A stretch of 12,968 nt of DNA from Escherichia coli (GCF_003334355.1 NZ_QOWP01000052.1); one strand, 5' to 3'; shown: positions 917-12,968, counted from the first letter of the stretch. Notes: generated by a model not told the origin, from the sequence alone. Program-made: numbers and translations.

Positions 917-1771
917 ATGGATGCCCTTAGCCGTTTGTTGATGCTTAACGCTCCACAAGGAACGATCGATAAGAATTGCGTGTTAGGAAGTGACTGGCAG
1001 CTTCCACATGGTGCCGGGGAATTATCGGTTATTCGTTGGCATGCGTTAACGCAAGGAGCGGCGAAGCTGGAAATGCCGACGGGGGAGATTTTTACATTAC
1101 GCCCGGGAAATGTGGTCCTGCTACCACAAAATTCAGCCCATCGCCTGAGTCATGTCGATAATGAATCAACCTGTATTGTCTGCGGCACTCTTCGGCTGCA
1201 ACATTCGGCGCGTTATTTTTTAACGTCTTTGCCGGAAACGCTGTTTTTAGCACCGGTTAACCACAGCGTAGAATATAACTGGCTGAGGGAGGCGATCCCG
1301 TTTTTACAACAGGAATCCAGATTGGCAATGCCGGGAGTGGATGCACTGTGTAGCCAGATCTGCGCTACATTCTTTACCCTCGCGGTGCGTGAGTGGATTG
1401 CACAGGTTAATACTGAGAAAAACATTCTCAGTTTGCTTCTGCATCCACGTCTTGGTGCGGTAATACAGCAAATGTTGGAAATGCCAGGACACGCCTGGAC
1501 CGTCGAATCGCTGGCCAGCATCGCCCACATGTCCCGGGCAAGTTTTGCCCAGCTTTTCCGTGATGTTTCCGGAACCACGCCGCTGGCTGTATTAACAAAG
1601 TTGCGTCTACAAATAGCGGCCCAGATGTTTTCCCGGGAAACGCTCCCTGTTGTGGTGATCGCTGAGTCAGTAGGCTATGCCAGTGAATCATCTTTTCACA
1701 AGGCGTTTGTCCGCGAGTTTGGTTGTACCCCGGGAGAATATCGGGAAAGGGTCAGACAGCTTGCACCCTGA
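917..1771 (+). CDS. rclR: AraC-family transcriptional activator RclR (reactive chlorine-responsive regulator; YkgD)
   Basis: 284-aa ORF with an AGGAG Shine-Dalgarno 6 nt upstream of the ATG. The C-terminal sequence shows the AraC helix-turn-helix signature (...SFAQLFRDVSGTTPLAVLTKLRLQIAAQMF...VGYASESSFHKAFVREFGCTPGEYR). The N-terminal domain carries cysteines, consistent with RclR. Position is divergent from rclA. Confidence 0.9.
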   Translation: MDALSRLLMLNAPQGTIDKNCVLGSDWQLPHGAGELSVIRWHALTQGAAKLEMPTGEIFTLRPGNVVLLPQNSAHRLSHVDNESTCIVCGTLRLQHSARYFLTSLPETLFLAPVNHSVEYNWLREAIPFLQQESRLAMPGVDALCSQICATFFTLAVREWIAQVNTEKNILSLLLHPRLGAVIQQMLEMPGHAWTVESLASIAHMSRASFAQLFRDVSGTTPLAVLTKLRLQIAAQMFSRETLPVVVIAESVGYASESSFHKAFVREFGCTPGEYRERVRQLAP

Positions 1772-2296
1772 ATAAAACCGCCAGAAATCAGGGCAAAGAT
1801 AATCCGCATTCCGGGAGTTGTGAGCCTTTCAACTATTTCTATTTCCAACGGTGGTTTGGGCTTTATATATTTTTTCTGATGGACTCTAGCTCAGTTTTTA
1901 AATAAAAATGCAAACTAAATTGCTTCAATTAAATAAAATCCCGACTATTACTTGATACGTGATTATTGTCGGTGATTTTTTTGTACACCATCAGTGTATA
2001 TCTCAATAACCCCTGAATAAGTAGCTCTGAATAGGTATAAGGGATGTAGCCATTTTTAAATGGATTTCTTATGCCAAAAATGATCGTCGATTTCCCCATA
2101 AAATGTGAGCGATGCCGAAAGAAATAAAATTAGTTATTGCATTTGACGTTTGGATGAAAGATTATCATTTGTCATACAAATGAGGGGTGGTATGTTGCTA
2201 GCCAATTAAAAAGAACGCCATATTTATTGATGATTGATCCCCCGGTGGGGGGGAAACATCGGGCATAAATGGGCATGAAGTAATGGAGTATTAGTT

Positions 2297-6265: not shown

Positions 6266-7936
6266 TCATTTTTTCGCTCTCACCGGCATCCCATTTGCCA
6301 CAAAATATCCCGTCGTGCTCCTCGGCAGCGCTTCCTGTCCACGAATCATATCCGCTATTTTCTCGCCAATCATAATTGTCGTGGCGTTCAAATTCCCGGT
6401 GATAATCTGCGGCATAATCGACGCATCCACCACACGCAGGCCTTCTAACCCGTGTACGCGGCCTTCGCCGTCAACCACGGACATCTCGTCGTAACCCATT
6501 TTGCAGGTACCGCACGGATGGAAGGCGGTTTCGGCGTGGTTACGCACGAACTCATCGAGCTGTTCATCCGTCTGGCATTCGACACCGGGGCTGATTTCGC
6601 GGCCACGATACTGATCCAGCGCGGGTTGATGCATGATCTCGCGGGTGATGCGAATTGCGTCGCGGAACTCCTGCCAGTCCTGCTCGTGCGACATGTAGTT
6701 AAACAGAATCGCCGGATGCTGGTGCGGGTCGCGGGATTTAATCCGCACATGCCCACGGCTTGGCGAGCGCATTGAGCCGACGTGGCACTGGAAACCGTGC
6801 TCTTTCACTGCATTCGAGCCGTTATAGTTAATCGCTACTGGCAGGAAATGGTACTGAATATTCGGCCACGCAAATTCCTCACGGCTGCGAATAAATCCAC
6901 CTGCTTCAAAGTGGTTGCTGGTTCCAACGCCAGTGCCGCCAAACAGCCACTCCGCACCGATTTTCGGCTGGTTCCACCACTGCAGGGCAGGGTAGAGGGA
7001 AACCGGTTCTTTGCACTCATATTGCAGATACATCTCCAGATGATCCTGAAGATTTTCGCCGACGCCGGGTAATTCATGCACCAGCGGAATATCAAACTCC
7101 GCCAGCAGTTCAGCGTTGCCGACGCCGGAGCGTTGCAGGATCTGCGGTGAGGCAATCGCGCCTGCACATAACAGCACTTCTTTGTTGGCCGTTGCGCGGG
7201 TTGGGATGGTGCTGTCGCCTTCCAGCCATTCGACGCCCACCGCGCGTTTGCCGTCAAAAATGATGTGATCGGTCATAGCGTGAGTACGAATGGTCAGGTT
7301 AGGACGCGATTTGGCCTGATCGAGATAGCCACGCGCGGTGCTGGCGCGACGGCCCTGCGGCGTGACGGTGCGATCCATCGGACCAAAACCTTCCTGCTGA
7401 TAACCGTTGAGATCGTCCGTGCGCGGGTAGCCCGCCTGCACGCCCGCTTCAATCATCGCTTCAAACAGCGGATTGACGCCGGGTTTGGAGGTAGTGACGC
7501 TCACCGGGCCATCACCGCCGTGATAGTCGTTTTCACCCATATCGCGAGTCTCGGCCTTGCGGTAGTAGGGCAGGCAGTCGAGGTAGCTCCAGTTCTCCAG
7601 ACCGGGTTCTTGCGCCCAGTTATCGAGATCCAGCGCATTGCCACGGATGTAGCACATGCCGTTGATCAGCGACGATCCACCCAGACCTTTACCGCGTCCG
7701 CACTCCATGCGGCGGTTATTCATAAACGGTTCAGGTTCCGTTTCATAGGCCCAGTTGTAGCGTTTACCCTGTAGCGGGAATGCCAGGGCAGCGGGCATCT
7801 GGGTGCGGAAGTCAAAGCGATAGTCCGGGCCGCCCGCTTCAAGCAGCAGCACGGAGGTATTCGGATCTTCAGTCAGACGGGTAGCGAGAACGTTGCCGGC
7901 TGAGCCGGCACCAATAATGATGTAGTCAAATTGCAA
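6266..7936 (-). CDS. betA: Choline dehydrogenase BetA (GMC oxidoreductase, FAD-dependent)
   Basis: The product starts (M)[20 protein letters not shown]..., with the FAD-binding GxGxxG motif. The start is a TTG (complement of 7934-7936) lying 5 nt downstream of a perfect AGGAGG. The track ORF to 7981 over-extends upstream into betB. Confidence 0.9.
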
Positions 7937-12891: not shown

Positions 12892-12968
12892 GGTAATGAC
12901 TCCAACTTATTGATAGTGTTTTATGTTCAGATAATGCCCGATGACTTTGTCATGCAGCTCCACCGATT
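12892..12968 (-). mobile_element. IS1 insertion sequence, right (IRR/insB 3') end; element continues beyond the window end
   Basis: 12892-12968 reads GGTAATGACTCCAACTTATTGATAGTGTTTTATGTTCAGATAATGCCCGATGACTTTGTCATGCAGCTCCACCGATT, which is the IS1 IRR read inward. It has the same orientation as the copy at 1-180. Confidence 0.9.
12907..12968 (-). CDS. insB: IS1 InsB (transposase) C-terminal end; partial at window edge
   Basis: Minus-strand translation gives ...SVELHDKVIGHYLNIKHYQ*, with the TAA stop (complement of 12907-12909) lying inside the terminal inverted repeat, as in IS1. Confidence 0.7.
   Translation of the reverse strand, partial: SVELHDKVIGHYLNIKHYQ

Follow-up and report, generated by a model that had tools for sequence, protein, structure and literature searches.

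A known YieP- and FNR-controlled ykgE promoter, a putative lactate-permease relic and a probably non-switching G run in the rclR-ykgE spacer of Escherichia coli

The 525-bp spacer that separates rclR from ykgE in Escherichia coli is probably an ordinary, historically layered regulatory region that lacks a special leader. According to the explanation favoured here, it combines a mapped YieP/FNR promoter, relics of an LctP-family lactate permease gene and a leader hairpin, and the run of seven G residues within this hairpin probably does not operate as a switch. The functional core of the interval is the YieP- and FNR-controlled promoter of ykgE, which was known beforehand.

Position, composition and conservation of the spacer

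The window, i.e. the whole stretch of 12,968 bp that was analyzed, shows the gene order rclA'-rclR-ykgEFG-ykgH-betBA/betI-betT of the E. coli type. A preliminary description, made from the sequence alone, had drawn attention to an unusually long AT-rich interval upstream of ykgE containing the element CCCCCGGTGGGGGGG, and had proposed that a small-protein gene, an sRNA or a complex promoter could reside there. Its measurements hold. The gene rclR occupies positions 917-1771 on the plus strand, ykgE begins with a GTG start codon at 2297, and the 525 bp between them (1772-2296) have a GC content of 0.32-0.385 in comparison to about 0.5 in the flanking genes. The element CCCCCGGTGGGGGGG is located at 2239-2253, with the C5 run at 2239-2243 and the G7 run at 2247-2253, and the latter is the sole G or C run of at least six nt within the window. 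The additional statement that the interval contains no ORF of 60 aa or more is correct for ORFs that lie wholly inside the gap, but it does not extend to a 60-aa ORF with a TTG start (1723-1905, plus strand) that straddles the stop codon of rclR.

The spacer is present at a coverage of at least 80% in 5,143 of 5,426 complete E. coli genomes, and the best full-length match among the 5,426 genomes is 99.8% identical and spans 526 bp compared to the 525 bp of the query. In the RefSeq record of K-12 MG1655, no feature is annotated in the gap. Its sequence equals that of the window base for base, except for one A (A6 instead of A5) in the following run:

2207-2211, plus strand: A5 run; all 18 E. 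coli strains compared directly, K-12 among them, have A6 at this place

The YieP- and FNR-controlled ykgE promoter

The option of a complex promoter was borne out and had already been published. A Reg-Seq study (Ireland et al., 2020, eLife; PMC7567609) resolved the ykgE promoter into an RNAP site, a site for the repressor YieP located downstream of it and a site for an activator, which was assigned to FNR. For the present analysis, the Figure 5 source data of that study were re-mapped with the YieP matrix as anchor, such that Reg-Seq position p corresponds to window position 2087+p. The Reg-Seq ykgE construct contains the same DNA, and the RNAP site, the YieP operator and the activator region all fall within 2100-2181, which is the sigma-70 ykgEFG promoter dissected by Reg-Seq. 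Together with the leader, this promoter comprises these elements:

2100-2122, plus strand: activator region, assigned to FNR by Reg-Seq, with TGTGA at 2104-2108 and a centre near -61 of the inferred start
2137-2142, plus strand: -35 hexamer TTGCAT, with a negative Reg-Seq footprint at positions 49-53 and 55 (2136-2140 and 2142)
2160-2165, plus strand: -10 hexamer GATTAT, separated by a 17-bp spacer and covered by the Reg-Seq footprint
2167-2181, no strand assigned: YieP operator, a perfect palindrome ATTTGTCATACAAAT, from the Reg-Seq YieP energy matrix and PWM (positions 80-94)
2172-2296, plus strand: inferred ykgE 5' UTR of about 125 nt, placed by promoter geometry, with the Shine-Dalgarno sequence GGAG at 2285-2288

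The strongest Reg-Seq signal is found at position 74 (A2161); there and at positions 77-78 (A2164 and T2165), the signal is negative and of the RNAP type. In the re-mapped published footprint, both the -35 and the -10 elements are mutation-sensitive, as is characteristic of a sigma-70 promoter. The geometry of the -10 hexamer would place the transcription start at approximately 2171-2174, beneath the YieP palindrome. The Cappable-seq and Kim 2012 supplements list no entry near K-12 321,470-321,520 or for ykgE. In the Reg-Seq table, the activator FNR is listed at -102 to -80 of ykgE relative to a nominal zero, and this zero coordinate is a computationally predicted start (PMC7567609).

The operator ATTTGTCATACAAAT is identical to the consensus of the Reg-Seq PWM and to the ChIP-exo motif of YieP, published as atTTGTaTGAcaAAT (PMC7642389), and it overlaps the inferred +1. 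YieP bound over the start site would repress ykgEFG transcription, and deletion of yieP is reported to de-repress ykgEFG about tenfold (PMC7642389). The YkgEFG proteins form a respiratory L-lactate dehydrogenase that affects fitness when cells respire nitrate anaerobically (PMC9701030), and this fits an activator of the FNR type. The activator block AAAATGTGAGCGnnGCCGAAAGAAATAAA is kept in other Escherichia species and in most of the Citrobacter loci compared, and the -35 hexamer TTGCAT and the operator core TTTGTCATACAAAT are conserved in other Escherichia and in those Citrobacter loci that carry the module.

Two further promoter candidates were considered and discarded. A second promoter-like site, TTGTCA-16-TATGTT at 2169-2196, shows no RNAP-type Reg-Seq footprint in either the wild type or the yieP deletion. 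A sigma-54-like GG-N10-GC arrangement, noticed by eye in GGGGTGGTATGTTGCT (2184-2199), has its GG replaced in other Escherichia and gives no Reg-Seq signal.

The insert of the Reg-Seq construct ends at about window position 2245. It thus includes neither the G7 arm nor an intact hairpin, and the distal 330 bp of the spacer also lie outside of it. The C5 arm (Reg-Seq positions 153-159) carries essentially no information in the footprint. For the AT-rich distal half (approximately 1834-2099), a primary role as an H-NS-bound silencing region that adds to the repression of ykgEFG is conceivable, although we consider it rather doubtful; such a role would be compatible with the main explanation. The GC content of 0.32-0.35 over 1800-2200 and the conservation of only 68-72% of the distal region among Escherichia species argue for H-NS, whereas mass spectrometry within Reg-Seq identified YieP rather than H-NS for ykgE (PMC7567609).

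A permease gene relic adjacent to rclR

Judged from sequence similarity, the rclR-proximal part of the spacer is the relic of an LctP permease gene and not a gene. The relic and a second conserved element can be delimited as follows:

1759-1834, minus strand: putative LctP-family lactate-permease relic, detected by tblastn and blastn and corresponding to residues ~341-365 of the Citrobacter protein
1887-1938, no strand assigned: conserved lctP-upstream block, which blastn matches to loci of Citrobacter and Tenebrionibacter at 81-90% over 30-53 nt

Translated on the minus strand from 1833 to 1759, the relic reads VERLTTPGMRIIFALISGGFIQGAS and matches the segment VEWVTTPGMLIIFATLIGGFIQGAS of the C. 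braakii permease at 76% over 25 aa (tblastn, E = 2e-6). The C. braakii-type permease used as query has a length of 524 aa and is recognized by TIGR00795 (lctP) at 401 bits. On the DNA level, 1762-1834 matches the lctP genes of 10 Citrobacter and Tenebrionibacter loci at 74-81% over about 70 nt, with E values down to 7e-13 (blastn). These matches fall on the same coordinates in the 10 loci, and both the orientation and the synteny upstream of ykgE are conserved. The assignment draws on these pairwise and DNA matches, as the 50-aa ORF that contains the relic is too short and yielded no match against NCBIfam. An intact LctP ORF of ~524 aa is missing in the gap, in which only residues ~341-365 are recognizable. 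The relic extends 13 nt into rclR, so that the last four codons and the stop codon of rclR appear to be permease-derived.

In Citrobacter, the second element is found approximately 44-82 nt upstream of the lctP start codon. The distance between the relic and this block amounts to ~1.07 kb in Citrobacter versus 65 bp in E. coli, which points to an internal deletion. Within the block, Citrobacter and other Escherichia share the palindrome CTGAATCGCTTCAG, of which E. coli has a degenerate copy at 1915-1928 (CTAAATTGCTTCAA). The palindrome agrees with the Cra ChIP-exo motif, published as ctgaAtCGaTtcag (bioRxiv 10.1101/080929), in 13 of 14 positions and, by this motif resemblance, can be compared to a Cra/FruR box.

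The remains are similar to other gene relics left behind after deletion, as they consist of a 75-bp in-frame LctP match that is syntenic, has retained its orientation and is adjoined by the former upstream block. Among pseudogene fossils, this case is set apart by the small portion of the lctP gene that survives (~5%). A literature search returned no report of a permease relic in K-12, and no annotation recording it was found. Plasmid pFec10 carries an intact LctP-Dld-YkgEFG cluster, the LctP protein of which is described as being without a counterpart on the K-12 chromosome (PMC7984374).

Small open reading frames and small RNAs

The permease relic also explains an ORF that had been highlighted in the preliminary description, a 37-codon minus-strand ORF that starts at the complement of 1807-1809 and opens with the hydrophobic stretch MRIIFALISGGF. 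This ORF is real and forms the inner part of the 50-aa ORF at 1696-1848. As had been observed, it is not preceded by a convincing ribosome-binding site: no Shine-Dalgarno match is found 5-10 nt from its ATG. That the gap encodes a small protein, either from this 37-codon MRIIF ORF or from a 56-codon ORF at 1929-2099, or a small RNA, is judged to be extremely improbable. The 37-codon ORF is hydrophobic and intact in 13 of the 13 E. coli sequences compared, which would speak for such a protein, but its N-terminal part is permease fossil and the remaining two thirds overlap rclR, an overlap that accounts for the ORF staying open. In addition, its relic part shows amino-acid replacements among the strains (R to L, L to P, S to P and Q to E), as all changes seen there are non-synonymous. 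Six gap ORFs that were checked, including the 56- and the 60-codon ORF, are broken in several of 13 E. coli sequences, the 56-aa ORF in seven and the 60-aa ORF in 10 of the 13. The RefSeq annotation of K-12 does include small proteins of the Storz type (yahV nearby) but lists nothing in the gap. With the flagged ORF being a translation of the permease relic and most other gap ORFs being broken in several E. coli lineages, the proposal of a small-protein gene was not sustained.

The proposed sRNA likewise found no support. The best Rfam matches were mir-338 with 24.9 bits (gathering threshold 57) and STnc300 with 19.4 bits (gathering threshold 80), so that nothing came near threshold, and no terminator-like site is present in the gap. 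A potential upstream ORF encoding MGMK (2269-2283) is intact in E. coli, and its stop codon is replaced in Citrobacter (ATGAAGCAA); it was not considered meaningful.

Citrobacter loci and the ancestry of the promoter

The spacer was further compared with a set of 72 loci from species-representative genomes that were scanned with YkgE. The promoter module at 2100-2183 is the only part of the gap that was aligned by BLAST to every Citrobacter locus carrying the module, which applies to most of the Citrobacter loci, at 74-80%. Among Escherichia, 2100-2300 aligns to three other species at 76-78%. In loci of the C. braakii type, the LctP permease gene is found in divergent orientation upstream of ykgE. 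In C. gillenii and in Citrobacter sp. Res13, dld is located directly upstream of ykgE. The C. gillenii Dld is a D-lactate dehydrogenase (NF008387, 1045 bits), and in this species the module of activator block, -35, -10 and YieP operator lies upstream of dld. Judging from this arrangement, one promoter module would drive dld in both of these Citrobacter loci, in which dld is followed by a GC stem-loop with TTTT and then by ykgEFG. Most other Citrobacter keep the module, the 5' UTR of dld, the last ~25 dld codons and a palindrome, GCTTGATATCGCGATATCAAGC, at -57 to -36.

Based on this comparison, the ykgE promoter appears to be the former dld promoter of an lctP-dld-ykgEFG lactate island. The ancestral island would have had the structure lctP <> P(YieP)-dld-ykgEFG, from which Escherichia would have lost lctP and dld by deletion or replacement. 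The loss of dld would have fused the old dld promoter to ykgEFG, leaving the leader of ~125 nt, and the C5-GGT-G7 hairpin of E. coli (-59 to -43) would represent a remnant of the dld-ykgE intercistronic stem-loop (-57 to -34 in Citrobacter).

By its position, the E. coli hairpin may be a fossil of the dld stem-loop. Both are GC-rich and lie at an equal distance from the ykgE start codon, the C. gillenii stem-loop after dld (ACCGGGCGGCGATGTGCCGCCGGTTTT) being located at -57 to -34 of ykgE. Unlike the C. gillenii structure, the E. coli stem is followed by AAACAUC without a U-tract, and the two cannot be significantly aligned. When the E. coli leader was compared with the dld-ykgE spacer of C. 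gillenii, the proximal 27 nt aligned significantly (1/2000 shuffles), and no significant alignment was obtained for the hairpin and the part upstream of it (391/2000 and 444/2000 shuffles). Homology of the hairpin at the sequence level was accordingly dropped in favour of positional correspondence. Altogether, three unrelated stem-loop sequences occupy one slot upstream of ykgE in E. coli and Citrobacter. The C. gillenii stem-loop has only T4 and falls short of the terminator-scan rule of at least five T, and its designation as a putative terminator is a judgement. The broader notion of a universal hairpin in ykgE leaders was rejected, as the 72 loci, ranging from Pectobacterium to Vibrio, differ widely in hairpin position and in the upstream gene.

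The GC hairpin of the ykgE leader

Both the length of the leader and the position of the hairpin within it (+67 to +83) are deduced from the geometry of the footprint. The ~30-40 nt of the leader that are proximal to the start codon (ATAAAnnGnnATGAAGnAATGGAGTA) are conserved to Citrobacter. The hairpin region contains three overlapping features:

2238-2254, plus strand: GC stem-loop, at approximately +67 to +83 when counted along the inferred transcript, or -59 to -43 relative to the start of ykgE
2247-2253, plus strand: G7 run, which makes up the 3' arm of the hairpin and reaches into its loop
2247-2273, plus strand: canonical G-quadruplex motif G3-N1-G3-N7-G3-N7-G3, from a regex scan, which needs G7 or longer

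The short GC hairpin that had been foreseen is recovered by folding, with a 6-bp stem (U2238-A2254 plus five C-G pairs), a 5-nt loop GGUGG and an energy of -14.1 kcal/mol (31 nt). The stem is real and statistically unexceptional. Of the features of an intrinsic terminator, the GC-rich stem-loop is present and the U-rich tract 3' of the stem is missing: the tails beyond the stem read AAACAUCGGG on the plus strand and AUCAAUCAUC on the minus strand, with no U-tract on either. The terminator scan flagged neither the hairpin nor any other site in the gap, and its sole match is located on the minus strand inside ykgE. Since no U-tract follows, the hairpin most likely no longer terminates transcription. 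It is most likely inert or, at most, a weakly stabilising, passive leader element.

A real function of the hairpin, as an RNA element that protects from decay, serves as a processing site or toggles between hairpin and G-quadruplex to modulate translation, is regarded as unlikely, if not negligibly so. A C3-5/G3-6 stem is found in all E. coli lineages and in the three other Escherichia species examined, with energies of -8 to -15 kcal/mol. Among 12 distinct Escherichia variants, 90% of the core-stem cells are paired, two sequences have A-U in place of one C-G pair, and G-U pairing is preserved after two C-to-U changes; this count weakly favours maintenance of the stem. Differing stem-loops also fill the corresponding slot in Citrobacter, and the canonical G-quadruplex motif at 2247-2273 is one of two such motifs on the plus strand of the window, with none on the minus strand. 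Nevertheless, the folding z-scores are unremarkable, with -1.1 for the hairpin against dinucleotide-preserving shuffles and 0.03 for the whole leader, and within E. coli no other 15 nt of the leader are as polymorphic as the hairpin. In ST131, O157 and strain 2017-02-2CC, the stem is weakened to -9.7 to -11.3 kcal/mol and remains uncompensated. The G-quadruplex motif is limited to lineages with G7 and absent from those with G6 or an interrupted run. Moreover, the stem is more than 30 nt away from the Shine-Dalgarno sequence, which the MFE fold leaves unsequestered, and Rfam gives no match for the hairpin. A more specific version, in which the slot ~45-60 nt upstream of ykgE is an intercistronic attenuator or stabiliser that the lactate-oxidation operons of Escherichia and Citrobacter have maintained from a dld-ykgEFG operon, and the G7 of A/B1 lineages adds tuning by G-quadruplex formation or slippage, is considered improbable.

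Length of the G run among strains

As the preliminary description had raised the possibility of a slipped-strand site, the length of the G run was compared across strains. G7 and G8 were counted with blastn queries of 52 and 53 nt, respectively, with identical flanks, and G6 with an exact 40-nt query. The exact K-12 type with G7 was found in 2,600 of 5,162 records (5,159 E. coli genomes), G6 in 133 exact records (141 with any match to the 40-nt query) and G8 in five exact records. Several lineages carry variants of their own, including APEC O18 of phylogroup B2 (CCCCCGGAAGGGGGG), ST131 (CCCCCGGAAGGAGGG), O157:H7 (CCCCGGGTGGGGGG) and strain 2017-02-2CC (CCTCTGGTGGGGGG). Strain EC43 combines G6 with an 11-bp deletion downstream. 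In general, B2, O157 and other lineages have G6, and the ST131 and EC23-1020 types have an interrupted GGAGGG(G). Rough estimates from evenly spaced rows put the genome shares at ~10% for ST131, ~20% for B2 and ~7% for O157. Since a GGAA loop is common to other Escherichia species and the B2 lineage, the comparison suggests that G7 is derived in A/B1-type lineages. There, G7 would have arisen from an ancestor of the CCCCCGG(AA/T)GGGGGG type, by substitution or by single-base slippage.

The run is therefore not of invariant length, and it lies inside the inferred transcript, two findings that keep with the idea of a slipped-strand contingency tract in which the gain or loss of a G toggles ykgEFG expression within a clone. 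The outcome that the preliminary description had named as refuting, an invariant tract outside any transcript or promoter, thus did not arise. G6 and G8 were also detected on several independent haplotypes (at least two backgrounds for G6 and three for G8), and single-base changes may recur, either by slippage or as homopolymer assembly errors. Poly-G/C phase-variable genes are known from Campylobacter, Neisseria and Haemophilus, and the run in E. coli resembles these contingency loci as a G homopolymer near a gene start that differs in length among genomes. Unlike in those loci, however, it comprises only seven nt, is embedded in a stem-loop of a 5' UTR instead of an ORF or promoter spacer, and one major lineage has an interrupted version; nor does the run appear to vary more than a T-run nearby. 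A run of seven is short for a contingency locus in mismatch-repair-proficient E. coli.

Further observations render such a tract very unlikely. The off-type lengths are rare in comparison to G7 and could equally be homopolymer errors of long-read sequencing, and the major differences in the run are fixed by lineage. The GGAGGG of the ST131 type, present in ~10% of the sampled rows, would abolish slippage. The T-run at 1870 of the same spacer varies in length from six to eight in 18 E. coli strains compared. With respect to position, the run (2247-2253) is located neither in the promoter spacer (-35/-10 at 2137-2165) nor in the ORF, which starts at 2297, so that a change of one base would have no obvious switch target. 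The predicted stem energy is unaffected by one G more or less (-14.2, -14.1 and -14.4 kcal/mol for G6, G7 and G8, respectively). Phase variation of the G7 run was therefore not upheld, as the variation is mostly structured by lineage, the run is interrupted in ST131 and the T-run in the gap appears to be equally variable. In all likelihood, the G run drifts between lineages like any homopolymer and is not a genetic switch.

Implications

For the mechanism of ykgE regulation, the present reading carries little weight, as the promoter has already been published. It adds that the published Reg-Seq construct omits the G7 arm of the native leader, and that the K-12 chromosome would hold an unannotated fossil of an LctP permease together with the upstream block of that gene. 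The lactate island lctP-dld-ykgEFG, which is intact in some Citrobacter and on plasmid pFec10, provides a history that would explain the long, AT-rich spacer between rclR and ykgE. In view of this history, YieP may also merit study in the role of a lactate-module regulator.

Bracketing by IS1 and comparison with K-12

At both of its ends the window carries sequence of IS1, in one shared orientation, and a second feature of its interior concerns guanine-rich sequence:

1-180 and 12896-12968, same orientation: IS1 termini, one at each window end
7776-7803, + strand: canonical G-quadruplex motif, GGGAATGCCAGGGCAGCGGGCATCTGGG

The left IS1 copy cuts rclA short at about position 180, and the 12.7-kb segment between the two termini is bracketed in a manner like that of a composite transposon. 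Relative to K-12, the window differs by 31 substitutions and two single-base indels; its source is therefore a strain other than K-12, rich in IS1 and perhaps a Shigella. Besides the motif at 2247-2273, this G-quadruplex motif is the sole one on the + strand of the window, and it falls within the span of betA, which is encoded on the opposite strand. Nine plasmid-borne matches to the E. coli type of the leader, the inferred ykgE 5' untranslated region, were found. Independently of these, an intact Citrobacter-like lctP-dld-ykgEFG module has been reported on plasmid pFec10 (PMC7984374).

Homopolymer runs and strain variants

Among the complete E. coli genomes searched, none matched the 525-bp rclR–ykgE spacer at 100%, the top match reaching 99.8%. 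By direct comparison, the window holds five adenines at 2207-2211, versus six in K-12 and 17 other E. coli strains. This run falls near position +35 of the leader; Reg-Seq, the published mutagenesis dissection of the ykgE promoter, gave no signal there. It could either mark a lineage or reflect a sequencing error in a homopolymer. The T-run at 1870-1875, which served as an internal control for the drift of homopolymers, comprises six residues in the window and K-12, seven in O157 and several others, and eight in strains 13P477T and GPEC60.

In EC43 (L011), the leader lacks 11 bp between two short repeats, CATCGGGCAT and AAATGGGCAT (equivalent to window positions ~2257-2275), and this deletion has cost it one G3 tract. 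The five genomes with G8 instead of G7 upstream of ykgE include 1008S13 (L089), in which the IS5-like element ISKpn26 replaces the rclR side ~570 bp upstream of ykgE, and OkiPb01695 (L091), in which rclR is annotated as a pseudogene.

Remnants of a proposed ancestral lactate island

The final four codons of rclR and its stop (1757-1771) are contained in permease-derived sequence, a relic of the lactate permease gene lctP; the rearrangement that destroyed lctP may therefore also have created the present rclR 3' end. In most Citrobacter, the dld 5' UTR is fused to the final ~25 dld codons between the YieP-controlled promoter and ykgE, ~60-200 nt upstream of the latter (L017, L016, L072 and others), so that a short leader ORF ending in ...MNPG(M/I)SKT...* is possible. 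In addition, Citrobacter and Escherichia species other than E. coli (L072, L018, L014 and others) have a near-consensus Cra/FruR box, CTGAATCGCTTCAG, in the region from which lctP and ykgE diverge; the corresponding Cra/FruR-like box of E. coli (window 1915-1928) is degenerate. The near-consensus box suggests that the proposed ancestral lactate island was under Cra control.
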